The translations under genes and the position numbers were made by a program. From positions 29,425 to 93,424 of the forward strand of contig DYGB01000002.1 in NCBI GenBank assembly GCA_020724905.1: a stretch of DNA of 64,000 nucleotides, read 5' to 3'. Source of the DNA: Candidatus Paceibacter sp. (GTDB taxonomy: Bacteria; Patescibacteriota; Minisyncoccia; UBA6257; JAGOQP01). Below, piece by piece: positions 33,996 through 53,523 of the stretch. Every line of letters starts with the position of its first letter. The stretch's first letter is position 1. The notes beneath the pieces were generated by a model, which was not told the DNA's origin, searched no databases, and saw nothing but the letters and a program-made list of their open reading frames with translations.

Positions 33996-34111
33996 AAAAA
34001 ACCTCCTTTTGAAAATGAAATAAAAAATAAATGAAATGAATGTAAAAGAACGAAACACTACATAGTGTGTAGTGTTTATATAGTAAACTCTATATTGCCA
34101 TTAGTCAATAT

Positions 34112-34723: not shown

Positions 34724-34732
34724 ATTATATAT

Positions 34733-35125: not shown

Positions 35126-35185
35126 GTTGAATAAATCTCTAAAATATGAATCTTATCCTTTCTATTGTCTTCTTTGTTGCTTACA

Positions 35186-35554: not shown

Positions 35555-35573
35555 GTACAGATTATACCATAAA

Positions 35574-36269
35574 TTACCTCGGATGTTTTTTCCGAAAATC
35601 TAGAATAAGCAATATAATGCACCATATAGCTACTATCGAAAGCTGAATCATTAATTCCGTCATTCCTCCAGACGTAACTATTGTAAGAGCATCGCTACCG
35701 ATAGAATATACAATAATTCCAACAAGAAAATTCCAGAATAACACGGCAGTAAACGAAGTAATGAAAAATTTTCTAAATGGCATATTTAAGATCCCCGCGG
35801 CTGTGTCTGTAAGGGCGCTCATGCTTGGGAGCCAGTAACTTCCGAAAATAGCCGATGATCCATGTTTGAGAAGTTTTTCTTTAGACTCTTTAATAGATGC
35901 TTTGAGTCCGAATTTTATAAGTAGTTTATGCCATCCATATTTTCCTAGTATATAATTTGCAAGATGTGCGCACATAAGACCGAGTGTACCAATGCATATC
36001 CGTATAAGTGCATCTGAAAGAGAGTTAGCGCTTGCTACGCTCACAAAAATAATGAACACCCCTGGGAAGTATCCGCCAAATAAAAGCATACCCTCAATAC
36101 ATGCGCTTATGAATATAATAATGAGCCCATAAGAATCAAACCATGTGTTGATATGTTCTGTGAGTATTTCTGTGGAAGGAAGATCAAAAAGCCTCCAAGC
36201 AATAAAAAGAGAGAGAAATGTAGCAAGTAGACTAAGGGGTAAGGATAAAAGCTTGAGATAGTATTTCAT
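35574..36269 (-). CDS. DedA/TVP38-family membrane protein
   Basis: Polytopic; GGYFPGVFIIF and SYWLPSMSALTDTAAG motifs resemble DedA. Confidence 0.65.
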   Translation of the reverse strand: MKYYLKLLSLPLSLLATFLSLFIAWRLFDLPSTEILTEHINTWFDSYGLIIIFISACIEGMLLFGGYFPGVFIIFVSVASANSLSDALIRICIGTLGLMCAHLANYILGKYGWHKLLIKFGLKASIKESKEKLLKHGSSAIFGSYWLPSMSALTDTAAGILNMPFRKFFITSFTAVLFWNFLVGIIVYSIGSDALTIVTSGGMTELMIQLSIVAIWCIILLILDFRKKHPR

Positions 36270-36934
36270 TTATTTATTTTTTTACCACTGTGTTGAGGTG
36301 TATATAGTAGAAAAGAATCCTTGTTTTCCTTTGTTTCAGCCAAAAGAAATTGTTCATCAGTTATTGTTCTTGTTTTATACCCGTCGTAAGAAAGACTCTC
36401 TTCTATCTTTGTTAATATAGATTGGTATTTTTCTGATTCCCAGTGGGGAATGATAGAGGTATCTATCATATTTAGTCCCTCATATATTTGTATCGGTGCA
36501 ACAGAAGGGTCGTCTGCAGAGTCAAAGTATTTTAATGTTGGACCAAGAACTATAGCTCCGGCACTATCTCCTCCAACAACAATACCTTCCTCTAGTAATG
36601 CTTTAATCATACCATCAAGTCCACTCTCCTTTAGTGAATATCGAAGCATAAAGGTGTTTCCTCCGTTAAACCACAGAACATCAAATCTTTTTAGGGTTGA
36701 TTCTAGTTCGTTATTATTTTTATAGAAGTTTCTCAAATCTATTTCTTCTACATAAGAGACAATATCTTTAAAGTATAATATCAGCTCTTTTGATTTTTCT
36801 AATCGTTCCTTATCTGGTTTATCATCTTTTGCATTAAGAATAAGGCCTAATTTTATTTTATCTTTGGGTTTATTTATAAAACGTAGGAATGTCTCTACAT
36901 CAGGTATTCTGTATGAAGAAAGGTATAATTTCAT
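36266..36934 (-). CDS. peptidase S51 (dipeptidase E / cyanophycinase-like)
   Basis: FNGGNTF and GGDSAGAIVLG motifs. Confidence 0.7.
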   Translation of the reverse strand: MKLYLSSYRIPDVETFLRFINKPKDKIKLGLILNAKDDKPDKERLEKSKELILYFKDIVSYVEEIDLRNFYKNNNELESTLKRFDVLWFNGGNTFMLRYSLKESGLDGMIKALLEEGIVVGGDSAGAIVLGPTLKYFDSADDPSVAPIQIYEGLNMIDTSIIPHWESEKYQSILTKIEESLSYDGYKTRTITDEQFLLAETKENKDSFLLYTPQHSGKKINK

Positions 36935-36938
36935 AGGT

Positions 36939-37688
36939 TTACTTTAGTTTAAATAAAAATCCATTCCTACTCCAAAACCATAGAGGGGAATGCATGTCTA
37001 TTGGATCTATTCCACTTTTATTTAAAGCCGTTCTCCATTTTTCTGATATATCTTCTCTTTTTAGTTCACTCCCCTCTTTTTCTGTTATTATGCCGAGTTT
37101 TATAGAACATTTTATTATATGTGTATCAGGTGCTATTTCGATCTTATCTCTATTTTTTAGATGTAGGCCGCAATAAGTATCAAGGATAAATGCCCAATAA
37201 TTAAATATTTTAGGACCGGAGAGATACGGGAATTCTTTCTTATGTTTGATTTGAATTTGGTTTTTCAGTGTTAGGAAATCACCTTGTGTTTCTTTTATTA
37301 AATAAGAAAAAGAACCCCAATTTTTTTCTACTGCCTTGGTAATGGATATCCAGGTATCTGTATGCTTATTTGGTTGAAGTGCTAGTTTGTGTTTCAAAAG
37401 AGCTTTCTGGATTTCTCTTCTTTTCTTTTTCTTTATATTTTTTATCTCGAATATAAATTTTGTTGACTTATCATTGTATGTTTTTAACGCAGCCTCCCAA
37501 AGATCATAACTGTTTCTTTGATAATTAAGTGCCATCGGTAACGTGAAATAGGCAATTTTATCTTCCAATTCATTTTTTAAAAATCTTGGATGAGAATCTT
37601 CTGGCATTATTGTTTTTCCCAAATCACCCCTTTTGAATGCCTCTATAAGGATGTGGCATCTATTTTGTAACAATGAGTTATTCTTCAT
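36939..37688 (-). CDS. hypothetical protein (possible HhH-type DNA glycosylase-like)
   Basis: 249 aa; weak resemblance (FPYLSGPKIFNYWAFIL) to HhH glycosylases; not confidently assigned. Confidence 0.35.
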   Translation of the reverse strand: MKNNSLLQNRCHILIEAFKRGDLGKTIMPEDSHPRFLKNELEDKIAYFTLPMALNYQRNSYDLWEAALKTYNDKSTKFIFEIKNIKKKKRREIQKALLKHKLALQPNKHTDTWISITKAVEKNWGSFSYLIKETQGDFLTLKNQIQIKHKKEFPYLSGPKIFNYWAFILDTYCGLHLKNRDKIEIAPDTHIIKCSIKLGIITEKEGSELKREDISEKWRTALNKSGIDPIDMHSPLWFWSRNGFLFKLK

Positions 37689-37692
37689 TTGG

Positions 37693-38238
37693 TTATAATA
37701 GATTCAAGATTTCTGGGAATTCTTTTCCACAAAAATGTCCTTTATCTGAGTATTCGTGGTACGTGGCTTTTGGGAGAGATTTTTTTATTATCTCGAATGA
37801 TGTTAATAGATCCGGAGAGTCGTCTGATGATATAAATACGTGAATCGTGTTAATATCCTGAATGTTAGAGTTTATCGAAAAGTTAAAAAAGTCAGTCGTT
37901 AGTTCGTTTTCAGGATCTAGCCATGGGGCAACAAGGATTATTTTTTCCACCTTAATGTTTGGGTTTTCTGAGAAGAATCGTAGTAAAAACCCGCCTCCAC
38001 AACTGTGTCCGATAACTATACTATTTTTTTCTAATGATTGTTGCTTAAATACCTCAAGCCAATTCTCATATAAAGGATCAAATGGTTTTGGGTACTCAAG
38101 TGCTTGGCATAAACCGTTCTTGAGAGCTATTTGTTTTTGTAACCATGGAAACCAATTTGTATTTGATGGGGATGGTTTTTCTGTTTTATAAAACTCATCT
38201 TTATATGGGGATCCGTGTATAAGTATGGTTTGATTCAT
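37693..38238 (-). CDS. alpha/beta hydrolase, YdeN/RBBP9-like serine hydrolase
   Basis: GHSCGG nucleophile elbow; ~180 aa single-domain hydrolase. Confidence 0.65.
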   Translation of the reverse strand: MNQTILIHGSPYKDEFYKTEKPSPSNTNWFPWLQKQIALKNGLCQALEYPKPFDPLYENWLEVFKQQSLEKNSIVIGHSCGGGFLLRFFSENPNIKVEKIILVAPWLDPENELTTDFFNFSINSNIQDINTIHVFISSDDSPDLLTSFEIIKKSLPKATYHEYSDKGHFCGKEFPEILNLL

Positions 38239-38252
38239 GTTGTCTTGTTACA

Positions 38253-38591
38253 TTAATATAATTTTTCACCGTTGGGAACTTTTTTATCAGGTCTTGCTAT
38301 GACAATATCTCCGTCTTTATCTTTAAAGCCCGTAACTAAACATTCAGAAACATATTTTCCCACTTTTTTTGGTGGAAAGTTAACAACGCCGATGACTTGT
38401 TGTCCCAACAACTCTTCTTTTGTGTAATGATGAGTTATTTGACTACTTGACGTTTTTATTCCAAGTTCTTCTCCAAAATCTATTTTCATTTTATATGCAG
38501 GATCCTTAGCCTCAGGAAAATCTTCTATTTCTACAATAGTTCCAACGCGTAACTCTATGTTCTCAAATTCCTCCCAAGTGATTGTTTTCAT
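38253..38591 (-). CDS. csaA: tRNA-binding protein (CsaA/EMAP-like OB fold)
   Basis: 112 aa; LLGQQVIGVVNFPPKKVGKYVSECLV characteristic of the tRNA_bind domain. Confidence 0.7.
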   Translation of the reverse strand: MKTITWEEFENIELRVGTIVEIEDFPEAKDPAYKMKIDFGEELGIKTSSSQITHHYTKEELLGQQVIGVVNFPPKKVGKYVSECLVTGFKDKDGDIVIARPDKKVPNGEKLY

Positions 38592-38606
38592 GGTATTATT
38601 ATATCA

Positions 38607-39266
38607 TTGATGAAGAATAAATTTCCAACCATTATATTCTGGAGCATCATCACGCTACTTCCCATTCTTGGAATAATTTTTGGCATTCTCGATCCAGAAT
38701 CGTTCGAGCATGGGAAGCAATTAGCACAAGAATATATCATTCCTTTTGGTGTTTTTGCTCCTTTTGTGTTTATCTTTATCCAAGCACTTCAAGTTATTAT
38801 CACTCCCATTAGTCACTATAGCGTTGGTATTATTGGTGGGTTTATTTGGGGACCATACATAGGAGGAGTGTTGAATTGGACTGGTCGTATGATAGGACAT
38901 GCAATTGCATTTATTATTGCTCGGAAAATAGGAAAAAAGCTTGCTTTGAAATTTGTAAGTTCTCAACAGATAGAGAAATATGACAAATATGTTTCTAATA
39001 AATCTCTATTTCTATTTTTGTTTTATTTTCTCCCTCTTTTTCCTGATGATGAATTAAGTTATCTTGCAGGACTTTCAAAAATGAAGGCAAAATCATTTAT
39101 TGTTGCAAATATATTTGGGCATATTGGCGGAAGCTTTAGTCTTGCATATATTGGGGCTGGAATAGATGAGTACAATCCATTTTTCTGGATATTAATTACT
39201 CTCACTTTAATTGGATTTGTTATGTTTTGGTTTGTGGTAATTAGGAATAATAGGTCATTTGAATAA
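38607..39266 (+). CDS. TVP38/TMEM64 (DedA-related) membrane protein
   Basis: Polytopic; conserved ...DDELSYLAGLSKM...FIVANIFGHIGG region. Confidence 0.65.
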   Translation: MMKNKFPTIIFWSIITLLPILGIIFGILDPESFEHGKQLAQEYIIPFGVFAPFVFIFIQALQVIITPISHYSVGIIGGFIWGPYIGGVLNWTGRMIGHAIAFIIARKIGKKLALKFVSSQQIEKYDKYVSNKSLFLFLFYFLPLFPDDELSYLAGLSKMKAKSFIVANIFGHIGGSFSLAYIGAGIDEYNPFFWILITLTLIGFVMFWFVVIRNNRSFE

Positions 39267-39303
39267 AATAAAAGCGCAGATATATTATCCACGCTTTTTT
39301 GCG

Positions 39304-39708
39304 TTATTTCTTCAAGGAATCAGGTAATAGACAAGTATGTGAATCCCAAATCCATATTCTTTTCTTGTTCAAATTAAATACTTTACTAAAGAAACCGCAT
39401 ACGAGTTGACTTTCCGGCTCCTGATCTAATTCAAATTGAATTGAGTTTAGTTTGGTAATGGGGATTGGATTTTCTTTCATATCTAGATATTCAACATTTC
39501 TCAAAATGAAATGTGTGGTGGCTACTATGTCAACTATATCCCCAACCTTAATTTCCTCTATTGTGTTGGTGAGCGTTGCACAAATACGCTTGTAAGGTCT
39601 TGGTACTTCCTCTCTGGGTAATTGTGCTTCTGATATTATGACGATGCTCTCATCATATTCTAGTCTTTCGTTTCCGAAATAATCATAGAAAAACAATTTG
39701 TCTTTCAT
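39304..39708 (-). CDS. hypothetical protein
   Basis: 134-aa ORF; no family recognised. Confidence 0.4.
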   Translation of the reverse strand: MKDKLFFYDYFGNERLEYDESIVIISEAQLPREEVPRPYKRICATLTNTIEEIKVGDIVDIVATTHFILRNVEYLDMKENPIPITKLNSIQFELDQEPESQLVCGFFSKVFNLNKKRIWIWDSHTCLLPDSLKK

Positions 39709-39773
39709 AAATCCTCCTTGATTTTTATTGTGCTATATATTCTATATCATATATGAACATCCTTGTAAATCTA

Positions 39774-40232
39774 TTACAAAAGTTGTTTATCAAGCGGTGG
39801 GTCTGAGAAATATGTTCTTACTATAAAACCTTTTTCCATTAATTCAATCATTTCCATGTAAGGTCTTTTTATAAGCAGAAATTGTGGTTGGGGAAGATAT
39901 TTCTTTTTAAAGTCTTGATAATTAGAAACAGTAAAGTCCGCGTCCCCTCTTTCTGGTTTGGTTACATCAGGAACCCTTATCTTGAGAATTTTTAATATTC
40001 CAGCATTAGTTTCTATATCTCTAATATGATATATATATCCCGATTTTGTTTCTTTTATTCTTTTCCCAATTTTTTTCGTAGCACTTTCCAGTTCTGTATA
40101 TTCAGATTCTGATTGTGAAAATATACACGCATAATTCAAAGATGCATTAACTTCATCTGTGTATTTATCTTTAAGATATGATGCTTGTAAAACTATATTT
40201 TTAACAATGTCTAGTAATTCTTTTTCGTTCAT
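39774..40232 (-). CDS. hypothetical protein
   Basis: 152-aa ORF; no family recognised. Confidence 0.4.
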   Translation of the reverse strand: MNEKELLDIVKNIVLQASYLKDKYTDEVNASLNYACIFSQSESEYTELESATKKIGKRIKETKSGYIYHIRDIETNAGILKILKIRVPDVTKPERGDADFTVSNYQDFKKKYLPQPQFLLIKRPYMEMIELMEKGFIVRTYFSDPPLDKQLL

Positions 40233-40240
40233 ACTATTTT

Positions 40241-40669
40241 TTATTCATCTATTCCCCATTGTACCATTTCTGTGAATCGAATATAGAACCCATGGGGATC
40301 AACAACTCTAAAGTCTTTACTTCCCCATTTCTTTAATGTTAGTTCTTGTGCTATGGGGATTTTTTCTACACTTTTTATAGCTTTCCATAATAGCTCTATA
40401 TTGGATACTGGTATAGTTATTTCAACACCATATCCTCGAGGAGTGTCTTTTGAAATACTTTTGAAATAAGAGTGGCTATATATTTTCTCTGTATTTCCAT
40501 AGAAATTTAGATATGTTGATCCAAGATCATCATTTCTTTCTAGAATGAGGTAATCATTTTTTTCTTCTTTTTCGTTTCTTGCCACAGAGAAACCAAAATG
40601 TGTATAAAATTCAATTGTTTTTTTAAAATCAGGGACGTGGAGTTCTATAACAAGATTATTTTCCAGCAT
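40241..40669 (-). CDS. VOC-family (glyoxalase/bleomycin-resistance fold) protein
   Basis: LVIELHVPDFKKTIEFYTHFGFSV N-terminal beta-alpha-beta-beta-beta module. Confidence 0.5.
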   Translation of the reverse strand: MLENNLVIELHVPDFKKTIEFYTHFGFSVARNEKEEKNDYLILERNDDLGSTYLNFYGNTEKIYSHSYFKSISKDTPRGYGVEITIPVSNIELLWKAIKSVEKIPIAQELTLKKWGSKDFRVVDPHGFYIRFTEMVQWGIDE

Positions 40670-40795
40670 ATCAGTATTAAGTTTATTATATAAATAGTAT
40701 CACACATTATTTCTTTCAATAACTGTATATGTTGACATATATCCATATATGATGTATCATCTCTTTAGACACATTAATAATACAAGGAGCGTATA

Positions 40796-41341
40796 ATGAA
40801 CATTAAAGAGCTTGCTTCAACTGTTACTCAAACTACTTCGATGTTCCACAGTGTTTCATCGTTTGCAACTCGTGTTTTTGGTCTTCTTCTCGTTTTTCAT
40901 CGAGACGTTCTTAAGATGGAGGAGTGGAGTAAGAAAACTGGTGGATATTTTACTCTTGCTCAGGATGATGGAACTCCTCTTCTAACGTTTCGCATTGGAG
41001 CAGTTATTCCAGAAAAGACAGATAAGTATTTTCATCTTTCTTTGGAAAAAGCCAGACGTCTTGGACAAAACAAAAGTCATGGTTCTAGTTTTAAAAGTCG
41101 TGACGGAAGAAAGAGATGGGGAGGAGCTGTTCGTGGAAGAGGTCTTAATAATATTCTTTCGTTTTCTGGATTAACTGAAGTAGGTGATATGATTCTTACG
41201 TATTTTGTAGCAGAAAAACTCGGTTTTAGATCACCAGAAGAAATCAAAGCTCTTGCCGAAGGTGAAAACTTCTATGGAGAATATTCAAGGTTTAAAGATT
41301 TTATCAGTGGTTTTGAAACAACTTTAGATTTTCTACAATAA
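40796..41341 (+). CDS. hypothetical protein
   Basis: 181 aa with AAGGAG RBS and a TTGACA/-10-like promoter upstream; terminator downstream. Confidence 0.5.
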   Translation: MNIKELASTVTQTTSMFHSVSSFATRVFGLLLVFHRDVLKMEEWSKKTGGYFTLAQDDGTPLLTFRIGAVIPEKTDKYFHLSLEKARRLGQNKSHGSSFKSRDGRKRWGGAVRGRGLNNILSFSGLTEVGDMILTYFVAEKLGFRSPEEIKALAEGENFYGEYSRFKDFISGFETTLDFLQ

Positions 41342-41345
41342 GTAT

Positions 41346-41375
41346 AAGCCCCTAATATTACAGGGGCTTTTTTTA
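41346..41375 (+). terminator. rho-independent terminator
   Basis: AAGCCCCT-aatattac-AGGGGCTT followed by TTTTTTT. Confidence 0.65.
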
Positions 41376-41735
41376 AATAAAAACCACCGCATACTACTTT
41401 AGACTATTTTGCGGTGGATGAATTATTTATTCTATTCTTAATCTTTGTTTTTGTTAGAATAAATAACTTTTGGAATAAATGTAGAATAAGAAAATAATTG
41501 AATTTCCAGATTCTTACAAATGTTTTATGAGGATGTGATACTTCTTTCCAAAAACCATTGAGTGAATCAAAGGCTTTCTTTTTAAAATCTTTTTTTAACA
41601 CAAATCCTCCTATGCATTATACTACTTCTATCATACTATACCATACGTTTTCTGTCAATATTTTAAGTACTTTCTAATTATATAGATGGTGTGTTAAAAT
41701 TAATAAATGTTCTTTAATATAATGCGAGGAAATAT

Positions 41736-41915
41736 ATGAAACAGCAAATTCTATACATTGATCCTGAAATGAATCGTTTAATTGGTTTGTTGGCACAGAA
41801 CGCCACTCTTATTAGTGCGTCGGGGGTAGCTTTTCCAATCCCCTACATAAGAATAGAGAAGCGTCTTTTTCGTAAGTCTTTTAATATTATTTTAAAATTT
41901 TTAGAGACATCTTAA
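41736..41915 (+). CDS. hypothetical small protein (59 aa)
   Basis: ORF with GAGGA RBS 6 nt upstream; it falls below the ORF-track length cutoff. Confidence 0.3.
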   Translation: MKQQILYIDPEMNRLIGLLAQNATLISASGVAFPIPYIRIEKRLFRKSFNIILKFLETS

Positions 41916-41925
41916 TGAAAGGAGG

Positions 41926-42114
41926 TTGATTATGTCTGTTACAGTACCCATTCCTGATTGGATTATACAGACTTTGTTCATTGCATTAATCGTTTGTATT
42001 ATTTGTCTCCTTTTAGTTGAGAGATCAAATGATATTTTTGCTATTATTTTCTATATTTCTCACTTTGTTTGTATAGTTATCGTTGGTTGGCTTTCAAAAA
42101 AAGCTGGAGAATAA
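41926..42114 (+). CDS. hypothetical small membrane protein (62 aa, 2 TM)
   Basis: Strong RBS AAAGGAGG, two hydrophobic helices, terminator immediately downstream. Confidence 0.5.
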   Translation: MIMSVTVPIPDWIIQTLFIALIVCIICLLLVERSNDIFAIIFYISHFVCIVIVGWLSKKAGE

Positions 42115-42129
42115 AATAAAAGCCCCTAA

Positions 42130-42164
42130 ATTAATTATAGAAGGGGCTTTTTATATATTTCCTA
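42130..42164. terminator. bidirectional rho-independent terminator
   Basis: AAGCCCCT...AGGGGCTT hairpin followed by a T-run; lies between convergent genes. Confidence 0.6.
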
Positions 42165-42167
42165 TTT

Positions 42168-42689
42168 TTATGTTGATAGATTTATCAGTACTGAGTTAAT
42201 GAATTCAATCTTTCTTGCATAGTATTTTCTAACACTAATTCCATTTCCAGCTTCTTTTAATTCTTTGTATTCTTTTAATGCCCGTGGATTGGATTTGAGA
42301 TAATTTTCAAAGACCAAACTACGTTGCCAGTCAGGGCTACTTTCATTAATAAGAAATACATCAATGTGTTTTTTGTCTACTTCTGTTGCAAAACGAGCTC
42401 TTTTTAAAGGATATAAACTTTTTGGATTACCGAACAATTCCGTTAAAAGTAGCAAGTGGAAGTCGAAAGCCTTTTTAGAAACTGGGATAAATATGTCAAC
42501 TTCGTCTTGACCCGATATTCCTAAACTAGAGGCACCACAATGTTTTATTTCAACATCTTTAAGTTTCGCTTCTATTACAGATTTAATTTTTTCAAATTTA
42601 TTTATACAGGTCGGGTCAAAAGGAATGATTTTAACTACCTTAGTGTTTGATAAATGGTTAATCCATTGTTTTTGATCTTTGGTAAGCAT
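42168..42689 (-). CDS. GrpB-family protein (nucleotidyltransferase fold, UPF0157)
   Basis: IKHCGASSLGISGQDEVDIFI matches the GrpB IEHIGSTSVPGL..DIDI core. Confidence 0.6.
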   Translation of the reverse strand: MLTKDQKQWINHLSNTKVVKIIPFDPTCINKFEKIKSVIEAKLKDVEIKHCGASSLGISGQDEVDIFIPVSKKAFDFHLLLLTELFGNPKSLYPLKRARFATEVDKKHIDVFLINESSPDWQRSLVFENYLKSNPRALKEYKELKEAGNGISVRKYYARKIEFINSVLINLST

Positions 42690-42767
42690 AGTTAATGTAA
42701 TTGTTCTATTTTTATGCTTTCTCTTTAGTTTTTTTGAACATACTTTTCTTTGTGTAGCTTTTATCGT

Positions 42768-43175
42768 TTATGATTTTAATATTTGTTTTAATTCTTCCAA
42801 AGCTTCATCAAATGTGGACACAACTAGTCCTACTTTCTTAACGAAATTAATAGACCATTTAGGATTCCTATTTTCTTGCCAAATAATAATCATTTTGTCA
42901 CAAAAATCACCCGGTTTTTCTGTGTTATTGGCATAGAAATATCCAATTTCAATCCACGTTGCTTCTGACGGTGCGATTCCTGGATTGGCAATGAGAATGT
43001 CCGCGTTCTTAATTCCATTCAGGTCATCGGGGAAATATGTGTTTGGTGAAGTCTGGTCAGAATCAACCTCCCAATCATAAAAGTCACACTCTTGTACTGC
43101 TTTAAAGGGTTTCTTCCAATTACTATCGTGTTCATTGGATTGACCGGCTAGATAAACTTTTAATTTCTTCTTCAT
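42768..43175 (-). CDS. nucleoside 2-deoxyribosyltransferase-family protein
   Basis: VYLAGQ start, catalytic-type ...ILIANPGIAPSEATWIEIGY region. Confidence 0.6.
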   Translation of the reverse strand: MKKKLKVYLAGQSNEHDSNWKKPFKAVQECDFYDWEVDSDQTSPNTYFPDDLNGIKNADILIANPGIAPSEATWIEIGYFYANNTEKPGDFCDKMIIIWQENRNPKWSINFVKKVGLVVSTFDEALEELKQILKS

Positions 43176-43192
43176 TCTAACTTTTAAAGTCG

Positions 43193-43750
43193 TTATTTAA
43201 TTATTTCAAGAATAGCTGATAATGCTTCCGGAAGCTTATCAAAACCTGCTGAACCGTTAAGATGCTTTCCATTTGGAATGAGTATGAGTTTGCCACCAAG
43301 TTTTTCAGCTGTTTCTTTTGCATCAGATACCGGAACGAAAGGATCATTGTCTCCGTGTATTACGATCACTTTTGGTGACTTGTTTTTTATCTTCATCCAA
43401 TCAAAATCGTCTAAAAGAAATTCTCGTATCTTTTCATTTTCATTTTGATGACATGGTGCGCTTGCTATAATAACACCTTTTATATTAGGTGAGTCATATT
43501 TTTCAAGATATCGTAAGATTGCTGTTCCACCCAAAGAATGCCCCACTAGATAAATATCATCTTCTTTGTTTTTTGTAATATGTCTTTCTATTTCTTCTAG
43601 CCATTCACTGAGCTTAGGGGCTTGTGGTGATGGCATTGGGAGCGAACAGGCATAAATGTCCTGTTTTTCGAGTTCGCTCATTAAATATGGTCTCCAGCCT
43701 CCATTTGGAGATCCTTCAAATCCATGGATAAGGAATACTTTTTTATTCAT
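43193..43750 (-). CDS. alpha/beta hydrolase, YdeN/RBBP9-like serine hydrolase (paralog of 37693-38238)
   Basis: GHSLGG nucleophile elbow; same 185-aa architecture. Confidence 0.65.
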   Translation of the reverse strand: MNKKVFLIHGFEGSPNGGWRPYLMSELEKQDIYACSLPMPSPQAPKLSEWLEEIERHITKNKEDDIYLVGHSLGGTAILRYLEKYDSPNIKGVIIASAPCHQNENEKIREFLLDDFDWMKIKNKSPKVIVIHGDNDPFVPVSDAKETAEKLGGKLILIPNGKHLNGSAGFDKLPEALSAILEIIK

Positions 43751-43796
43751 ACGTTTAAATTATACCATAAAATTTTACCTAAATAATATGCATACA

Positions 43797-43828
43797 AATA
43801 AAAAGCCGCTCAGATAATCTTGAGCGGC
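43797..43828 (-). terminator. rho-independent terminator (minus strand)
   Basis: GCCGCTCA-gataatct-TGAGCGGC hairpin followed on the minus strand by a T-run. Confidence 0.6.
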
Positions 43829-43838
43829 GACAAGCTTT

Positions 43839-44366
43839 TTATTGTAAACATAAGAAAAAATGAACTTCTACAGAAGATGCATTAACAGTGGCGTAATGAA
43901 ATCTAAATTCTGCAATACCTTTAAAGAATTTGTTGATTTCTTTCAGCATTTTAAAAATTTCTTTTCCACTTTTCTTTCCTTTCGGATTAAAGTGAAAGTG
44001 AAAAATTGGAATGTCAATGTAAGTTCCTTGGGAGTCATTCCAGAACTCATTATAGTCTGAGGCAGTACCATTAAATGGATCTACATAACTACGAATGAAT
44101 AGTTCCAATAGTCGTTTTGTTTTTCCATCTTGACGAGATTTAAATCTCTTATTCAGGAATGCTCGATGTTTTTTGTATCTCTTCGTTTTGGGAATAAGTG
44201 AAAAGAGATGTCTTATTAGCTTTTTAAGCATTCTCTCTTGAGTGTCTGCGATTTTCACCAAGAACGGTTTTGCACGTTCTTGGTTTTCCTTTATTTTACC
44301 CATTTCTTCTGAAAGTATATCTTTGAAAAATGGATTTTTTTCAGGAATATAGATAAGACGGTTCAT
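43839..44366 (-). CDS. hypothetical basic protein
   Basis: 175 aa, Lys/Arg-rich; no family recognised. Confidence 0.4.
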   Translation of the reverse strand: MNRLIYIPEKNPFFKDILSEEMGKIKENQERAKPFLVKIADTQERMLKKLIRHLFSLIPKTKRYKKHRAFLNKRFKSRQDGKTKRLLELFIRSYVDPFNGTASDYNEFWNDSQGTYIDIPIFHFHFNPKGKKSGKEIFKMLKEINKFFKGIAEFRFHYATVNASSVEVHFFLCLQ

Positions 44367-44736
44367 TCTTATTTCTCCTATGAAGTTGTCAAATACTAGC
44401 TAAAAATAGGATAACATACACAGCAGTATCTGTAAAGGACAAGGAATTTATTTTTCTAAGAACTTTCTTTGGGTTGGCTCTATTTGGCTGGGTTTTTCGT
44501 ATTAGAACTTTATATCTTATCCGCATGTTGAGGATATTTTTCTCTCAGTTTTTCTTTTTCTTCTTGAGAGAGTGACCTAAGTTTAAGACGTCCTCCAATA
44601 TGCTCTGGAAGAGTGAGGTTCTCCGCTGAGGTGAGGGAGTGAAAAGTAAGTATGCCCCCAACCTCCCTTGGGAGCCGTTGGAGAATTTGAAGAGTAGGTT
44701 GATGTTGTTGGATAAGAAGATAATGCTAACTGATTG

Positions 44737-45786
44737 TTAGTTTATCCATATATCAATATTAAGTTTCTGATTAGTAACTTTTTCAAAATAAGTTGCAGCA
44801 ATCGCTATCCCAACAGCACTCAACTGTAACTTATTCATTAAAGTTTTACTAAAGGAGTCAAAAATTTTACTACCTGATTTTGTTTTATTTTTTAAATCTT
44901 CCTCAACTTGCGCTGTAGACGGAATCATTTTTCCGTAAATATCTTTTAATTCTTTCTTGTCTTCTTCACTAAAATTATTCTTATCTAAATAATCTTCTAG
45001 AACTTTTTGGTTTTGTGTTTTTATTACTAAATAATCATCTTCGTTTGTGGTAATAAGCGCTTTTGCTTCATTGGATAGTTTTAATTGATCAATCTTATCT
45101 TTCTCTAATCCTCTCATAAAAGGTAGCGTATAGTTCTTTTGAAAAATCTGAATAAGATTCCTGCTTAAAGCAGAAGATGATGCACATCTTGTATATTCTA
45201 AATATTGAAACTGAGAATTAGTTAAAGATGTTCCAAGAAAAGGAGTCACCATAGTTTCAAGAAAATTATCAAAATCAGCAATAGTATTTACTGGACTATT
45301 TAACGCATATAAACATATAAAAACCATAGCAAGTATATTCAGATGATCTTTAGTCAATTTGTCTGCGGTTTCGATGGACTCGTTAAAAACAATTCTTTTG
45401 ATATCTTCCTTGTCATTAGAAATTCTTTTACCCAAAAGAATGGCGAGGTTCTCATGCAATTCAACTGAGTCACTTCTGCTAGCTGCTAGTGCCGCTTTTT
45501 TAGTGATAAATTGAAAATCTGGACTGTTAATTACACTTTTTACTTCTTCCACATCAGACATGTAAGATTTTAGTTTGTCTTTTAATGCCTCGAGGAAAGA
45601 AGATTGATTTTCTGCGATTTTATCTTTTACAGGTTGGGGCAACTCTCCAAAAACTGAGCTCAGTAATTCTTTGGATAAATCTTCCACAGAACCCACTGTT
45701 AAATTAACTGTCTGATTCACAGCTATGGAATCCGCTTGAATATTAGTGGAATTATCTCTCGTCTTTTGTTTCTTTATCTCTGACAT
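44737..45786 (-). CDS. hypothetical protein (349 aa, helical; N-terminal segment repeats the tail of the upstream small TM protein)
   Basis: Long ORF overlapping the upstream 66-aa TM gene by 35 nt; no catalytic motif recognised. Confidence 0.5.
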   Translation of the reverse strand: MSEIKKQKTRDNSTNIQADSIAVNQTVNLTVGSVEDLSKELLSSVFGELPQPVKDKIAENQSSFLEALKDKLKSYMSDVEEVKSVINSPDFQFITKKAALAASRSDSVELHENLAILLGKRISNDKEDIKRIVFNESIETADKLTKDHLNILAMVFICLYALNSPVNTIADFDNFLETMVTPFLGTSLTNSQFQYLEYTRCASSSALSRNLIQIFQKNYTLPFMRGLEKDKIDQLKLSNEAKALITTNEDDYLVIKTQNQKVLEDYLDKNNFSEEDKKELKDIYGKMIPSTAQVEEDLKNKTKSGSKIFDSFSKTLMNKLQLSAVGIAIAATYFEKVTNQKLNIDIWIN

Positions 45787-45952
45787 TTATATTTAAATTA
45801 TCACTTTGTATGTTTATACTGTTATTTCTACTCCTTTGCTTTTTTATTATTTTATTACCACCCCAAAATAACGTGGCAAATCCAATTAATATACCAACTA
45901 GCGTAAGAAATCCTCCTGCAGTTTTTATATATAAAATTAAATCATCAAACAT
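45752..45952 (-). CDS. hypothetical single-pass membrane protein (66 aa)
   Basis: One TM helix then a basic/Asn-rich tail KKQRSRNNSINIQSDNLNIN. Confidence 0.45.
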   Translation of the reverse strand: MFDDLILYIKTAGGFLTLVGILIGFATLFWGGNKIIKKQRSRNNSINIQSDNLNINVRDKETKDER

Positions 45953-46083
45953 CGTAGTTTTTATATTTTATCAAAAAACTGCCCAGTTGGACAGTTTTTT
46001 GTCTGGCTACAGCTCTCAGCTTATATGCAGTGTCAGAATAGGTTCTTGGGCACACGACCCTCTCAGGTCACTGTGTTTGAAGA

Positions 46084-46107
46084 TACTGGCGTTTCCGTGT
46101 TAGAACT
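46084..46107 (+). repeat. degenerate copy of the tRNA-Gln 3' end (att-like direct repeat B)
   Basis: TACTGGCGTTTCCGTGTTAGAACT matches repeat A at 19/24 and the tRNA-Gln 3' end in the same orientation. Confidence 0.5.
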
Positions 46108-46190
46108 TCTAAGCCATCTGTGGATAAGTGCCTACACTTTCGGTTTCTATTCGTTTATAATATAATTATAGTTAAATAATATTTATAACA

Positions 46191-47762
46191 ATGTCTACTC
46201 TTACAAAAAAACAAAAACAAGTCTTTGATTTTATAAAGAGTTATACATCGGAAAATGGTATCTCCCCTACTATAGAAGAAATCCGTAAAGGATTAAAACT
46301 GAAGGCTGTTTCTACAGTACATGAACATATAAAAACTCTTGAGGTAAAAGGGTTTATTTCAAGAGATGATGATTTTTCTAGGAACTTAAGCATAAAAAAG
46401 AACATTATATCTGTGGTACATATTCCTATCCTTGGTCATATAGCTGCGGGCCAACCAATTGAGGCTATAGAAGATTTTCAGGACACCGTATCTATTGTTG
46501 ATTCAAGAATAAAGAGTTCTGAAGGATATTATGCCCTAAGGGTTGTTGGTAATAGTATGATCGATGAAGGAATTTTTGATGGAGATATTGTTGTTATTAA
46601 AAGACAGTCCGTTGCTGACAATGGACAAACTGTTGTTGCGATAATTGATGAAAATGAGGCAACTCTTAAGAAATTATATAAGGAAAGAAGACGTTTTAGA
46701 TTAGAGCCAAGAAATCCTAATATGGAACCTTTATTTAGAACCCATGTGGAGGTTCGAGGAGTTGTAGTAAAAGTTATTAGTAATATTCAAGATGAAGTTG
46801 AGACAATTGCGAAAACAAAACACGGATTTAGAACATTGGATTTGTTTGCAGGTGTTGGGGGTATACGAATAGGTTTTGAAAATGCGGGGTTTAAAACTGT
46901 ATTTGCAAATGATTTTGAAGAAAAATGTGAATATACGTATAACCTAAATTTTAAAAAAACAAAGCTGGTGGTTGAGGACATAAGGAAAATAGGAATTGAT
47001 GATTTGCCAGAATTTGATTTTTTGTTGGGTGGATTCCCCTGCCAAGCCTTTTCCATCGCAGGTTATAGAGAAGGTTTTAATGATAAAAAAGATCGAGGCA
47101 ATTTATTTTTTGATATAGCAAGGATTATTAAAGCCAAAAGACCCGAAGGATTCTTACTTGAGAATGTTAAGAATTTAAAAAGCCATGATCAAGGAAGAAC
47201 TTTTGAGGTTATAGAAAAAACTTTAAAGGATCTCGGATATCATATTCATACAAAGGTTTTAAACACTATGGAGTATGGGAATATTCCTCAAAATAGAGAA
47301 AGAATTTATATAGTTGGATTTAAAAATAAGAACTATTTCGATAGATTTGAATTCCCCAAACCAATCAAATTAACAAAGAAGGTTGTTGACTTATTAGAGA
47401 AGGATGTTCCTGAAAAATATTACTATAATAACAAACCTCTTTACGAAAGAATAAAAAACGATGTGAAAGATAAAAACAAAGTATATCAATGGAGAAGAAA
47501 GTATGTCAGAGAAAATAAAAGTGGCGTATGTCCCACATTAACAGCAAATATGGGAATGGGTGGACACAATGTTCCAATAATTAGGGATAATAAAGGAATA
47601 CGGAAACTTACTCCATTAGAATGCTTTAGGCTCCAAGGCTTTCCTGAGGATTATAAACTTCCTAATGTTGCTGATTCTGTTTTATATAAGCAAGCTGGTA
47701 ATTCCGTTAGTGTTCCGGTTGTAGAAGCTATAGCGAAACAAATAAAAAAAATTATGAAGTAA
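46191..47762 (+). CDS. LexA repressor (wHTH + S24 autopeptidase) fused in-frame to a DNA cytosine-5 methyltransferase
   Basis: Residues 1-200 align along the whole E. coli LexA (LTKKQKQVFDFI; cleavage site IAAGQP; LRVVGNSM Ser; TVVAIIDENEATLKKLYK Lys). Residues ~205-523 carry C5-MTase motifs I DLFAGVGG, IV GFPCQAFS, VI ENV, VIII QNRERIYIVGF, X GNSV. The ORF is continuous. Confidence 0.8.
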   Translation: MSTLTKKQKQVFDFIKSYTSENGISPTIEEIRKGLKLKAVSTVHEHIKTLEVKGFISRDDDFSRNLSIKKNIISVVHIPILGHIAAGQPIEAIEDFQDTVSIVDSRIKSSEGYYALRVVGNSMIDEGIFDGDIVVIKRQSVADNGQTVVAIIDENEATLKKLYKERRRFRLEPRNPNMEPLFRTHVEVRGVVVKVISNIQDEVETIAKTKHGFRTLDLFAGVGGIRIGFENAGFKTVFANDFEEKCEYTYNLNFKKTKLVVEDIRKIGIDDLPEFDFLLGGFPCQAFSIAGYREGFNDKKDRGNLFFDIARIIKAKRPEGFLLENVKNLKSHDQGRTFEVIEKTLKDLGYHIHTKVLNTMEYGNIPQNRERIYIVGFKNKNYFDRFEFPKPIKLTKKVVDLLEKDVPEKYYYNNKPLYERIKNDVKDKNKVYQWRRKYVRENKSGVCPTLTANMGMGGHNVPIIRDNKGIRKLTPLECFRLQGFPEDYKLPNVADSVLYKQAGNSVSVPVVEAIAKQIKKIMK

Positions 47763-47768
47763 GTTTTT

Positions 47769-48818
47769 CTATTTTTCTGTTTTATAGAATTTATCAAACT
47801 CTTTGATCATTTTATTCGTAGAATCTTTAGCAAATATCTCAAAAGAGTTCTTTATCGCTAGATTCTCATTCCAACTTGAGCTTCTTTTAAATTCTGAAAG
47901 CTCTACTCTTACATAACCTGGGGACACCTTCTTTCCGTTAATAGAAATAGACCTTGGGGTTTTTAAATAAAAAGACCCTTTGTTTTGTTTAATGATTGTA
48001 ACTTCTTTTAAATTACCTTCAATAGCAATTGGTAAAAATTTAGAGTCACGAAAATTATAAGTGAATTTCTTGTTCTCCACTCTTATAGGTTTGCTTTTCC
48101 CTGCCCTTACTACTTTATTTACATTTGAGACACTTTTTACATACCATGGGCTAACCTTTGGCTTACAGGATATAGTATGTTCCAAAATTTGGTTTTTAGT
48201 GTATGTACCTATTAATCTGAAACTTCCTATGGTTTTTGCTGGATGGGGTTCTTCTGGATTTATAATGTTTGAATTCTTATCTGATTTTATAAAGATGGGG
48301 TTAATCTTTAGTAAGTCTAAATTTTTTGGATTAAAAACTTCTTTATCAAAAATAGTAGTTAAATAATCTGGGGATAGATCAGATTCAACGAAAACATAGA
48401 AATCATCAATCATTTGTGGTTGCCTGACTCCCATTAAGTATTGTCCTTTTCTAAATACTTTAACTTCTACTCGAGGACGTTTTTTTATAGTTTCCCATTT
48501 CCCATCGTTGTATTGAACAAAAGGGATTATTCTTCTCTTATCCTTTATCCCAATAACATCTGGCGCATTTTTTTCTGATGAATTGTTGTACAAGAAATAA
48601 TCAGGAATAACACTATATGGTTTATCTTTAAAAAGAACGTCAAAAACGACAGTTTCAGCAAGCTTATTAAGCCACCGTTCGATAAATCCTCCGATTAAAT
48701 CTCTTTTAGAGGAAGTCCCTTGGAGATGAAGTGAATCGGAGTTATATTTCATTAATATGAAATATATTGTTCTAATCAGTTCTTCTTTTGTTACTTCTAT
48801 TTTGGGATATTTACTCAT
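47769..48818 (-). CDS. putative Type II restriction endonuclease (PD-(D/E)xK-like), cognate to the adjacent C5-MTase
   Basis: 349-aa ORF convergent and 6 nt from the MTase stop; PDVIGIKDKR...VEVKVFRK resembles a D...ExK core; no other family. Confidence 0.5.
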   Translation of the reverse strand: MSKYPKIEVTKEELIRTIYFILMKYNSDSLHLQGTSSKRDLIGGFIERWLNKLAETVVFDVLFKDKPYSVIPDYFLYNNSSEKNAPDVIGIKDKRRIIPFVQYNDGKWETIKKRPRVEVKVFRKGQYLMGVRQPQMIDDFYVFVESDLSPDYLTTIFDKEVFNPKNLDLLKINPIFIKSDKNSNIINPEEPHPAKTIGSFRLIGTYTKNQILEHTISCKPKVSPWYVKSVSNVNKVVRAGKSKPIRVENKKFTYNFRDSKFLPIAIEGNLKEVTIIKQNKGSFYLKTPRSISINGKKVSPGYVRVELSEFKRSSSWNENLAIKNSFEIFAKDSTNKMIKEFDKFYKTEK

Positions 48819-49064
48819 TAAGATAGAGCATATACCCTTATTGACATAAAATCAATTTAGCAGTAAAGAATCACCTTCTTTAAAGTATGCATGGGCAGTA
48901 TAAATGACTTGCTTCCGTTTTGTTTTACGTACTCATATTAAACCTATTCTATCTTTAACAAGCTCTAGGGGTTGTAAATTAGTTTGTCCGTTCGGAATTA
49001 TTTGAGTGGTAAACAAATTATCCCTTCCCTAATTCATATTACCATTAATAAAACCAGCAACAGT

Positions 49065-49529
49065 TTATGTTTCTTCTATGATTTTTTTAACAACTTTTTT
49101 GGATATGTTTAATAAGGGGCTGAGATTCAACCAGTATTTTCCATCTTCGCGTTGAGAAAGTATCTCTAATTCACCAAAACCAATTCTTAGTCCAATCCCA
49201 ATTTCCATGTAACTATTATGAGTAAGTTTGTTCCTATATCCATTTCTTAGTGTTTCGACTTGGTCATTTGAAAGACTCAGATTGTAGTAACTAGGATCAT
49301 TCAAAATTTGGAAATGTGTCTTTGTATCATTCCCACCTCCTTTTATAATACTACCAATATTGTCTACTATTGAAAGAAGAATTAACGCCGATGGATATCC
49401 ATAACATCCAGTATATCCATTCCAGCGAGGATCGGAAGATTTATCAAAATTTATACAATATTCCGCAACTTCAATCAGCTCTTTTAGAGCTTCCTTCTGC
49501 ATCTCTGACTTTGATAAATGAAGTGCCAT
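49065..49529 (-). CDS. hypothetical protein
   Basis: Start placed at Met 49529. The longer track ORF (to 49649) is read-through across the tRNA-Gln gene. Confidence 0.45.
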   Translation of the reverse strand: MALHLSKSEMQKEALKELIEVAEYCINFDKSSDPRWNGYTGCYGYPSALILLSIVDNIGSIIKGGGNDTKTHFQILNDPSYYNLSLSNDQVETLRNGYRNKLTHNSYMEIGIGLRIGFGELEILSQREDGKYWLNLSPLLNISKKVVKKIIEET

Positions 49530-49567
49530 ATTAACGTATCTCGTGTAGGATTGTTCCTTGCACGACT

Positions 49568-49641
49568 TGGCTGCCGGACTAGGATTCGAACCTAGATACC
49601 ATGCTCCAGAGGCATGTGTCCTGCCATTAGACGATCCGGCA
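49568..49641 (-). tRNA. tRNA-Gln (anticodon CUG), CCA encoded
   Basis: Cloverleaf: acceptor UGCCGGA/UCCGGCA with U1:A72 and G73 (GlnRS identity elements), D-stem GUCU/GGAC, anticodon stem CAUGC/GCAUG with loop CUCUGGA, T-arm CUAGG-UUCGAAU-CCUAG. Confidence 0.85.
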
Positions 49642-49694
49642 AAATACAAAGCTTATTGTAATGAAAATACTTCTATTATGCAATTATCTTATAT

Positions 49695-50627
49695 TTAGAG
49701 AATTGAAAATGTGGTGTAGGGAGAAACTATCTTTCCTATACTACATTCACATTTCTTAACCATTGATGAATGAGGGCCTTTTTCTACATTTGGAAGAAAA
49801 TATTGTATCGCTTCTTTTTCTCCCTGTGCACAAATAGAGACACTTCCATCATTGTTATTTCTAACAAATCCTTTGAGGTTATATTGTTGAGCTCTTTTTT
49901 CTATGAAACGTCTCATTCCAACACCTTGTACAATTCCTTCTAGATGAGCTGATAGTTCCAAAGGATCATTAAGAAATTCTTCTAGGGAAAGTGACCTTTC
50001 TATAGTGTAGTCTCCTATAGCTGTTCTTGTAAGAGCAGAGAGATATCCTTTAGATGAAAGTCTTTCTCCTAGATCTCTTGCCAAACTCCTCACATAGAAT
50101 CCTGAAGATACAAAGATATCAAGTATAAGTGTATAGGTCTCGTCTTCATTCTTTTGAAGAGATTGTATGGTATATGAATAAAAAGATACTATACGAGGCT
50201 GAGGTGATACTTCTTTCCCTTCTCGAGCTTTTTTATATGCAGCCACACCTCCCCTCTTTATTGCTGAGTATATAGGAGGTATCTGTTGTGTCTGATCTTT
50301 AAGACGTTCAAGCTCTCTTTGTATATCTTTTTTATCTATAGGAGGCACCTTTGTATCTTTGATAACTGTTCCTGTTATATCGTCAGTATCTGATGAGGCT
50401 CCAATACATATATGAGCTCTGTATGACTTATCTTTTCCTCGTAGGATAGTATCTAGTTGTTTTGTGTATTCTCTCCCTATCCCCACCATCAATACTCCTT
50501 CTGCGAATGGATCAAGTGTTCCTCCATGTCCTATCCTTTCCTTTGTTTTGAGTTCTCTTTGAATACTACGTAAAAACCCAGCAGAGCTAGGGCCTTTGGG
50601 TTTGTTCATGATAAAAAGACCACGCAT
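49695..50627 (-). CDS. truB: tRNA pseudouridine(55) synthase TruB fused to a C-terminal acylphosphatase-like domain
   Basis: TruB catalytic motif GHGGTLDP; the C-terminal 85 aa carry both acylphosphatase signatures (IVQGVGMRRF; GFVRNNNDGSV) in place of the usual PUA domain. Confidence 0.8.
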   Translation of the reverse strand: MRGLFIMNKPKGPSSAGFLRSIQRELKTKERIGHGGTLDPFAEGVLMVGIGREYTKQLDTILRGKDKSYRAHICIGASSDTDDITGTVIKDTKVPPIDKKDIQRELERLKDQTQQIPPIYSAIKRGGVAAYKKAREGKEVSPQPRIVSFYSYTIQSLQKNEDETYTLILDIFVSSGFYVRSLARDLGERLSSKGYLSALTRTAIGDYTIERSLSLEEFLNDPLELSAHLEGIVQGVGMRRFIEKRAQQYNLKGFVRNNNDGSVSICAQGEKEAIQYFLPNVEKGPHSSMVKKCECSIGKIVSPYTTFSIL

Positions 50628-53445: not shown

Positions 53446-53450
53446 ATATG

Positions 53451-53523
53451 AGCCAGCGAGAGGATTTGAACCCCCAACCTCTCCCTTACGAAGGGATTGC
53501 TCTACCATTAAAGCTACGCTGGC
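53451..53523 (-). tRNA. tRNA-Thr (anticodon CGU)
   Basis: Acceptor GCCAGCG/CGCUGGC, D-arm GCUU/GAGC, anticodon stem-loop AUCCC-UUCGUAA-GGGAG, T-arm GGGGG-UUCAAAU-CCUCU, discriminator U. Confidence 0.85.

Follow-up and report, generated by a model that had tools for sequence, protein, structure and literature searches.

A small membrane protein and a Vpar_1526-family protein that share a conserved motif form a candidate two-gene conflict module

Why should a small membrane protein end in the peptide with which its overlapping neighbour begins? The question was raised by a locus in a 64,000-nt stretch of Candidatus Paceibacter sp. DNA (contig DYGB01000002.1, positions 29,425 to 93,424; hereafter the window), where a gene for a 66-aa protein runs into the gene for a 349-aa protein (Table 1). 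A first-pass annotation had proposed that a single-pass membrane protein duplicates the N-terminal peptide of its partner, with 35 nt of overlap and 11 identities in 20 positions, and each of these figures was reproduced on the minus strand. The small protein ended with ...IKKQRSRNNSINIQSDNLNINVRDKETKDER and the large protein started with MSEIKKQKTRDNSTNIQADSIAVN. When the small-protein tail IKKQRSRNNSINIQSDNLNIN(VRDKETKDER) was aligned with the large-protein start MSE-IKKQKTRDNSTNIQADSIAVN, 12 of 21 positions were identical, or 11 of 20 without the preceding Ile. The explanation that we favour, and to which we give about an even chance, is that the pair constitutes a self-contained two-gene conflict module of the phage-defence type, with a sensor and a membrane effector joined by the shared β-motif.

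The similarity between the two proteins was far above that of shuffled sequences. A BLOSUM62 local alignment of the small and large proteins scored 69, compared to 29.7±4.7 when the small protein was shuffled, 30.7±4.5 when the large protein was shuffled and 25.1±4.8 when the tail was compared with the first 40 residues, and the observed score was reached in 0/2000, 0/2000 and 0/5000 shuffles, respectively. Thus, the similarity is not compositional, and the shuffles together with conservation across phyla ruled out a chance match of low-complexity sequence. The DNA encoding the two copies lies 70 nt apart, so that neither copy is the other one read in a shifted frame, and the reading frames of the two genes are offset by one. 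At the DNA level the copies were identical at 35 of 60 positions (58%), and for Ser one copy used AGT and the other TCC. The likeness has therefore been kept at the protein level and does not stem from a recent DNA duplication. The spacing, the low DNA identity and the unlike Ser codon families ruled out both a frame artefact and a recent duplication, and the earlier view of a genuine two-gene module held.

The motif was not restricted to the window. Very diverse bacteria shared the N-terminal consensus Q-K-S-G-D-N-S-T-N-[LI]-Q-A-G-G-x-I-v-v-N in the family to which the large protein belongs. We scanned the DNA upstream of homologues whose large protein starts with Q-K-S-G-D-N-S-x-N-I-Q-x-G-G-x-I, and all 22 distinct motif-starting loci had an upstream open reading frame (ORF) of 57-126 aa on the same strand, which encoded a hydrophobic helix, a basic stretch and, at the C-terminus, the motif again. 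The hosts were Saccharibacteria, Roizman-, Moranii-, Magasanikii- and Gracilibacteria, Melainabacteria, Fusobacteriaceae, Mucilaginibacter, Chitinophaga, Burkholderiales, Paraburkholderia and Streptomyces, and also E. coli, for which the copies were retrieved separately. For instance, the small tail and large start were ...QVQKSGNDSINYQAGGNMRV and MSQRQTSGDNSTNYQVAGD... in Streptomyces, ...QKQKSGSHSNNIQAGGNINK and ...QEQKSGSDSTNIQAGGDVNF in Chitinophaga, and ...QKQKSGDNSSNIQIGNIN and ...QKTKSGDNSTTVQAETVN in Gracilibacteria. A profile built from 23 small-protein orthologues retrieved 120 clusters of 36-151 aa (117 of them within 57-105 aa), with a hydrophobic helix in 118 and the motif in 117. 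The suspicion voiced in the first-pass annotation, that the motif might be noise without conservation in orthologues, was thus not borne out, and the co-occurrence that it had asked about was found at every motif-starting locus examined. The shared peptide is real, and the word duplication is misleading where it implies an event local to this genome: the motif is ancient and defines most of a large family together with its partner.

Absence of the motif went together with absence of the small gene. A motif-less second clade (clade b; Table 1) had no small gene at any of its 9 loci, and its large proteins had an N-terminus of the type 'SWFKNIIEKIKI...NSPSLKIEN'. In this clade an amphipathic 'SWFKNIIEKIKI' helix is followed by 'NSPSLKIEN...QIGQVNIQQGL', which may possibly represent a built-in membrane-binding helix and a degenerate motif.

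The two copies also co-varied. Motif identity was 0.433 within pairs and 0.352 between pairs, a within-pair value reached in 0/20000 permutations, and the copies have thus not been diverging independently since an ancient duplication. The Fusobacteriaceae pair carried an identical one-residue insertion in both copies, N-Y-Q replaced N-I-Q in both copies of the Streptomyces and Paraburkholderia pairs, and an IKKQ prefix was common to both copies in the window lineage. In the window, a Gly to Arg change (GGA to AGA) was present in both copies, at codon 42 of the small gene (45827..45829) and codon 10 of the large gene (45757..45759). At both positions Gly is the family consensus, and L042, a 95%-identical relative, reads GGA. 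This parallel change is anecdotal, with a chance that we would roughly place at a few percent. Together, the sequence comparisons point to selection for matching between the copies, as a homotypic interaction would predict.

The small protein contained one hydrophobic helix, with a Kyte-Doolittle 17-residue maximum of 2.09, in agreement with its earlier description as a single-pass protein. AlphaFold2 modelled a helix over residues 2-31 at a predicted local distance difference test (pLDDT) score of ~80, and the tail was disordered in the monomer model. The tail is placed in the cytoplasm by the positive-inside rule, because a basic stretch, NKIIKKQRSR, follows the helix. Outside the overlap, the small gene differed from that of the 95%-identical relative at 5, 3 and 10 nucleotides in the first, second and third codon positions. 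The window small protein had no Pfam, NCBIfam or PADLOC domain, and the 120 clusters were all without a name or a Pfam domain.

The large protein belongs to the LPO_1073/Vpar_1526 family, a placeholder name without an assigned function. It matched NCBIfam NF045477 with an E-value of 4.2e-57 and 193.7 bits (cutoff 45), with residues 29-348 aligned to positions 2-257 of the 257-position model, and phrog_19542 (unknown function) with an E-value of 8.8e-16; precomputed annotation placed Pfam PF28206 on all homologues. After clustering at 50% identity, the family comprised 3021 representatives at E<=1e-3, with 1093 at the stricter E<=1e-30, and the closest relative in a named genome was 70% identical, in a Candidatus Saccharibacteria metagenome-assembled genome. 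AlphaFold2 gave a confident all-α body (pLDDT 82, predicted template-modelling score 0.79), and residues 1-35 were of low confidence, with four short β-strands at residues 6-29 at pLDDT <50. A profile search of PDB sequences showed no Vpar_1526 relative with a solved structure. Pfam, PADLOC and PHROGs searches with the pair gave nothing informative beyond NF045477 and phrog_19542, and tblastn against 50,697 phage records gave no match. In the literature, Vpar_1526 was found in one paper, on the V. parvula/Veillonella outer-membrane proteome, and searches for Vpar_1526/LPO_1073 and for motif strings found no account of a partner gene or a shared motif.

The N-terminal position of the family was occupied in several ways. 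Among 171 large family proteins collected, the motif stood at the very N-terminus, the split form, in 107. Approximately 10 had a fused N-terminal segment with a single or double membrane helix, followed by the motif in one or two copies. One of these, P0011 (L002 215..1414), is a 399-aa protein that continues from the N-terminus and membrane helix of the small protein straight into the large protein and has a single motif copy. It resembles a natural deletion fusion, and it comes from one 1.6-kb assembly contig, where an assembly error is possible. At least 16 of the 171 had a domain of ~125 aa in front of an N/Q/G-rich segment (e.g. TNSGSGQQNNYQANSIVIKN) and the body. This domain matched the PDB entry 9om4 'HNH endonuclease' (E 2e-13), the Cap5 SAVED–HNH structure 7rwm (E 1e-7) and the PADLOC models for the CBASS endonuclease effector, SduA and PDC-M68A, and by these matches it is assigned as a Cap5-type HNH nuclease. 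An interchange of nuclease and membrane helix on a constant body is the usual sign of swappable effectors, as in CBASS, Pycsar, Thoeris and Avs. By analogy, the N-terminal position of Vpar_1526 probably holds exchangeable effectors on a sensor or regulatory body. The sensor-effector version of the earlier proposal fits both the membrane-helix and the HNH fusions, and its decoy variant found no support.

How might such a pair work? The nearest precedent, one that the first-pass annotation did not mention, is amyloid signalling by gene pairs. According to Dyrka et al. 2020 (bioRxiv 10.1101/2020.01.06.895854), amyloid-signalling pairs are encoded by collinear, often overlapping genes, with a motif of ~20-25 residues at the C-terminus of the effector and the N-terminus of the receptor. 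The same preprint describes the BASS motifs as enriched in N, Q, G and β-branched residues and depleted in P, L and K, sometimes with pseudo-repeats on the effector side. For Bab/Agp, a second preprint (10.1101/2024.11.07.622273) reports that this arrangement mediates abortive infection in E. coli with a non-NLR (nucleotide-binding, leucine-rich repeat) receptor. The window pair has the layout of an amyloid-signalling pair: collinear adjacent genes, the overlap, 12/21 identity in the motif and an arrangement repeated in the 22 loci. The family motif was enriched in N (×3.9), Q (×3.2), S (×1.9), I (×1.6), G (×1.4) and K (×1.44), with V at ×0.85, L at ×0.24 and P at 0, and extra copies of a pseudo-repeat, AGGDI(K/S), were found in several Patescibacteria small proteins.

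In the proposed mechanism, the 349-aa Vpar_1526 protein would be a cytoplasmic sensor or regulator and the 66-aa protein a single-pass membrane effector with a cytoplasmic tail that repeats the ~20-residue motif of the sensor; the two motif copies would associate homotypically as β-strands. An infection-related cue would cause the Vpar_1526 bodies to assemble, upon which their N-terminal motifs would take up an ordered β-structure that recruits or templates the small-protein tails. The gathered tails would bring the Gly-rich membrane helices into clusters and permeabilise the membrane, so that activation would occur via clustering and not by the release of a buried helix, and the outcome would be growth arrest or death of the infected cell. 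A defence function, direct motif–motif binding and membrane damage are what we infer from these comparisons, and an amyloid-like templating as in Bab/Agp or HET-S/NWD2, suggested by analogy, would be the least certain part.

A number of observations weigh against this explanation. The small protein lacks a Bell- or HeLo-like globular domain and its helix looks constitutively membrane-inserted; since the helix would seemingly always be in the membrane, activation would be unlike that of HET-S or Bab. In the sensor, neither an NTPase nor any other oligomerisation engine could be recognised: Pfam and NCBIfam scans of the large protein showed no NTPase, tetratricopeptide repeat (TPR) or PIN domain, with NF045477 as the sole match. 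Foldseek searches with the large protein against PDB and BFVD returned nothing significant and so gave no functional clue. PADLOC-DB v2 had no match for either window protein or for the large E. coli protein; its weak matches were between the small E. coli protein and a CBASS 2TM effector (E 0.017) and between the family protein P0024 and PDC-S47 (E 4e-4). The window large protein did not match Abi_alpha (PF14337) at E<=0.1, and family-wide Pfam scans found matches to it in 2 of 124 members at E<=0.01. In the N-terminal flank of the motif Lys is enriched, whereas BASS motifs are Lys-depleted. Both window copies have Arg where the family has Gly. The motif segment also persists in the membrane-helix and HNH fusions, where no partner needs recruiting, and the motif may primarily let the sensor assemble with itself, the small protein then becoming part of that assembly, or it may be a mere linker. 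Finally, restriction–modification (R-M) systems are abundant in Patescibacteria generally, and part of the adjacency of the module to R-M genes described below could be background.

Table 1. Positions of the gene pair, its parts and neighbouring tRNA genes in the window, and loci or proteins with related arrangements elsewhere
Feature	Position, locus or protein	Strand	Remarks
Small gene, 66 aa	45752..45952	-	N-terminal membrane helix, basic juxtamembrane stretch, C-terminal motif copy
Large gene, 349 aa	44737..45786	-	LPO_1073/Vpar_1526 family
Predicted transmembrane helix of small protein, residues 11-32, TAGGFLTLVGILIGFATLFWGG	45857..45922	-	Gly-rich; Kyte-Doolittle, AlphaFold2
Motif copy 1, small-protein residues 36-56, IKKQRSRNNSINIQSDNLNIN	45785..45847	-	Alignment
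Motif copy 2, large-protein residues 4-24, IKKQKTRDNSTNIQADSIAVN	45715..45777	-	Alignment; conserved N-terminal motif of the family
Vpar_1526 domain body, residues 29-348	44743..45702	-	All-α; conserved C-terminal LTSVGIAIA...IDIWIN
Gene overlap, 35 nt	45752..45786	.	ORF coordinates
Possible extended -10 element TGaTAAAAT	45965..45973	-	13-21 nt 5' of small-gene ATG; read from sequence
tRNA-Gln	49568..49641	-	
tRNA-Thr	53450..53523	-	
N6_N4 methyltransferase and MutH-like enzyme before module	L003-5		
N6_N4 methyltransferase and DpnII before module	L011		
Type I/IIG-like methyltransferase–specificity proteins and ResIII helicase	L023, L024		
E. coli contexts	L044 2687..5437; L045		L044, plasmid NZ_CP148400; L045, chromosome NZ_CM168005
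Motif-less clade	Loci L008-L010, L023-L029, L031; proteins P0020, P0022, P0031		
Membrane-helix fusions	P0011, P0029, P0032, P0050, P0085, P0093, P0111, P0164, P0169		
HNH–Vpar_1526 fusions	P0030, P0040, P0041, P0051, P0074, P0080, P0088, P0089, P0095		460-490 aa
HNH–Vpar_1526 fusions (continued)	P0109-P0113, P0124, P0125, P0147		460-490 aa

The genomic surroundings resembled those of defence genes, as the first-pass annotation had supposed. A DNA methyltransferase homologue was present in the flank at 13 of 34 loci, usually <1 kb upstream on the same strand, and the module often followed R-M genes of the same strand at a distance of just 3-11 nt. In the E. coli pair, the small protein measured 81 aa, had two membrane helices and ended in ...SQSVGDNSTAVQARGDIKID, and the 285-aa large protein started with MFSDKQKQQIGNNSYAIQAGNNVNV. 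Of 5426 complete genomes, 6 carried the pair, which in NZ_CP148400 spans positions 12537-13649 (WP_000687980.1 and WP_000490525.1). Both of the contexts examined placed it in P2-like elements, with gpA/DinI on one side and the portal gene gpQ on the other, an interval that is a defence hotspot (Rousset et al., PMC9122126). In one context the pair had 3HP, a validated system of three genes, as its neighbour (PADLOC Hp1-3, with E-values as low as 1e-248), and in the other its neighbours were two unrelated hypothetical genes; judged from these positions, it appears to behave as an independent movable two-gene cassette. At three loci a HARE-HTH/PDDEXK_5-like gene directly followed the Vpar_1526 gene (L003 7054..7824, L016 7058..7795 and L023 7013..7750), with spacing from a 4-nt overlap to a 3-nt gap. 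This gene was absent from the window and could be a third component in some lineages.

Within the window, the overlap of the two genes suggests that their translation is coupled. In other lineages the position of the small-gene stop ranged from a 17-nt overlap to a ~100-nt gap, and it was mostly within <=25 nt of the large-gene start. The sequence TGaTAAAAT upstream of the small gene could possibly be its extended -10 element; a scan for consensus promoters did not call it. The proximal sequence GATAAAAT..AAAACTA.G was common to the window and the relative L042, with unlike surroundings. The pair was located in a low-GC stretch of ~18 kb (~32000..50000, G+C 0.33 vs ~0.39) that ends near tRNA-Gln, which would fit an acquired island. 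The island also contained GrpB-, nucleoside-deoxyribosyltransferase-like and serine-hydrolase genes (42168..43750) and a 175-aa ORF (43839..44366) with faint matches only.

The pair is divergent from a gene at 46191..47762 on the plus strand, which encodes an unusual 523-aa fusion: a DNA-binding domain of LexA is joined to an S24 peptidase and a C5 cytosine methyltransferase (Dcm). The same fusion was linked to the Vpar_1526 pair in L042, in a different arrangement. Convergent to it in the window is a 349-aa gene on the minus strand (47769..48818) without a family match, which may encode its restriction enzyme partner. Between the small gene and the LexA–Dcm gene we found an imperfect palindrome, CTGCCCAGTTGGACAG (45979..45994), flanked by an A-run and a T-run, 5 nt upstream of TGaTAAAAT and 27 nt upstream of the small-gene ATG. 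It occurred once in the window (0 expected) and had the CTGT-N8-xCAG shape of a LexA/SOS box. The palindrome may be an operator for the LexA-domain methyltransferase, by which the pair could come under SOS-like control; none of the other loci examined has such a palindrome.

The alternative that survives best, although we consider it unlikely, is that the small protein is a constitutive membrane tether that anchors Vpar_1526 by β-strand pairing, and that the large protein is the actor, affecting lysis timing or the membrane in the manner proposed for Abi-alpha. Abi-alpha (EF2833, PF14337) was experimentally shown to be an abortive-infection protein that causes premature lysis (PMC6356687). Natural fusions do place a membrane helix directly on the Vpar_1526 body (P0011, P0029, P0032 and others), Vpar_1526 is listed in the V. 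parvula subcellular-fractionation tables, and one clade-b relative, P0031, passed the Pfam Abi_alpha threshold with 31 bits vs 29 over ~150 residues. In contrast, at least 16 members carry the Cap5-like HNH domain at the same position and have no membrane helix, which argues that the body does not need the membrane and that the N-terminal module acts as an exchangeable effector. Furthermore, the clade-b proteins lack any anchor.

A second alternative is a toxin–antitoxin-like pair, in which the small peptide would be a holin-like or type-I-like toxin and the large protein would sequester its tail and release it under stress or infection. The small hydrophobic peptide with its Gly-rich helix, encoded first in a translationally coupled pair, has features of such a toxin, and the weak match of the E. 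coli small protein to the CBASS 2TM effector would be in line with this. However, covalent fusions of helix and body are hard to square with a sequestered toxin, the HNH fusions favour an activating and not a neutralising regulator, and no known toxin–antitoxin family was matched in Pfam, PADLOC, PHROGs or NCBIfam. We regard this alternative as improbable.

We give similarly little credence to a non-defence membrane role, in regulation of the envelope or of housekeeping functions, with the motif as a generic oligomerisation or linker segment. The module was located among housekeeping genes at L007 (ribonucleotide reductase and tRNA synthetases) and L008 (Dus and RuvB), and no PADLOC defence model was matched. 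Against such a role stand the patchy, accessory spread of the pair, exemplified by its rarity among complete E. coli genomes and its prophage hotspot in both contexts examined, the position of the window pair in a low-GC island beside a tRNA gene, the nuclease fusions in the family and the frequent linkage to R-M genes. The last alternative, a decaying gene in which a 70-nt duplication and a frameshift broke a helix–Vpar_1526 gene and left a functionless small ORF, would agree with an offset that is not a multiple of 3, frames that differ by one and the existence of fused single-gene forms, but it is effectively refuted by the intact split form in 22 distinct loci of many phyla and the 120 small-protein clusters, and further by the DNA divergence and unlike Ser codons of the copies and the concentration of differences between close relatives at third codon positions.

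The sensor-effector module that we favour can be extended into a bolder proposal, which we hold to be doubtful: a widespread minimal β-templating (amyloid-like) abortive-infection system, in which cross-β structure would spread from the sensor N-terminus to a bare helix that then forms a pore, with the module as a second line behind R-M. The second-line role is suggested by the frequent co-transcription of the module behind R-M genes, and the module would fire once restriction has been evaded or blocked, much like PrrC or PARIS. The family is large, yet it has a placeholder name, no solved structure and no matching entry in the defence databases searched. If the shared motif does link a sensor to a bare membrane helix, no simpler receptor–effector signalling link would be known in bacterial immunity, and HET-S/Bab-type motif signalling would need neither NLRs nor Bell domains, nor multicellularity. 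Under the bolder proposal, amyloid signalling would extend to ultra-small unicellular Patescibacteria and to a class of receptors without an NTPase. Candidate-phyla-radiation bacteria, with their poorly known defence repertoire, would have a frequent new system, in many cases joined to R-M operons. The idea can be put to the test directly in E. coli, where the copies lie in P2-like prophages.

Comparisons with known systems place the module more closely. Abi-alpha resembles Vpar_1526 in being α-helical and prophage-borne, and its premature-lysis phenotype involves the membrane. P0031 and P0376, both of the motif-less clade, carried PF14337 as well as PF28206, and a third homologue search returned no stand-alone Abi_alpha sequences; any homology between Vpar_1526 and Abi-alpha would be tentative. 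In contrast to the Vpar_1526 pair, Abi-alpha acts as a single 272-aa gene with no described membrane partner or shared motif. CBASS Cap5 (SAVED–HNH) and the membrane effectors of CBASS and Pycsar are similar to the family in that a regulatory domain is combined with interchangeable HNH or membrane-helix effectors. Unlike in CBASS, there is no cyclase and no SAVED or cyclic-nucleotide-binding domain, the effector is N-terminal, and in the window it is a separate polypeptide joined by the shared motif alone.

The Bell/NLR pairs of BASS1-10 and the fungal HET-S/NWD2 pair share with our pair the collinear or overlapping genes, the placement of the motif and part of the composition bias (N, Q, G and I up; P and L down), as well as effector-side pseudo-repeats with a single receptor copy in some lineages and 'all-in-one' fusions. 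The differences are that the receptor here has no NB-ARC or NACHT domain (nor TGP) and the effector no Bell or HeLo domain, that Lys is enriched in the flank of the motif, and that the distribution centres on unicellular, ultra-small Patescibacteria, whereas Bell/NLR pairs are found in filamentous Actinobacteria and Cyanobacteria. Bab/Agp from E. coli ECOR25 (BASS11) has adjacent genes for a small protein with an N-terminal hydrophobic helix and for a large non-NLR partner, whose N-terminus repeats the ~20-residue motif found at the C-terminus of the small protein; it lies in a prophage defence hotspot, and its motif is N/Q/G-rich and disordered until assembled. The pair described here resembles Bab/Agp in this layout, in the hotspot location of its E. 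coli copies and in its N/Q/G-rich motif, with a tail that is disordered in the monomer model. In contrast to Bab/Agp, the effector here is a protein of 57-105 aa whose membrane helix is bare, with nothing like the four-helix Babybell sheath; the sequence of the motif appears to differ, and a defence role and amyloid formation are predictions. No description of the pairing turned up in the literature searched, and it is best classed, next to these systems, as putative shared-motif receptor/effector signalling on a large uncharacterised family.

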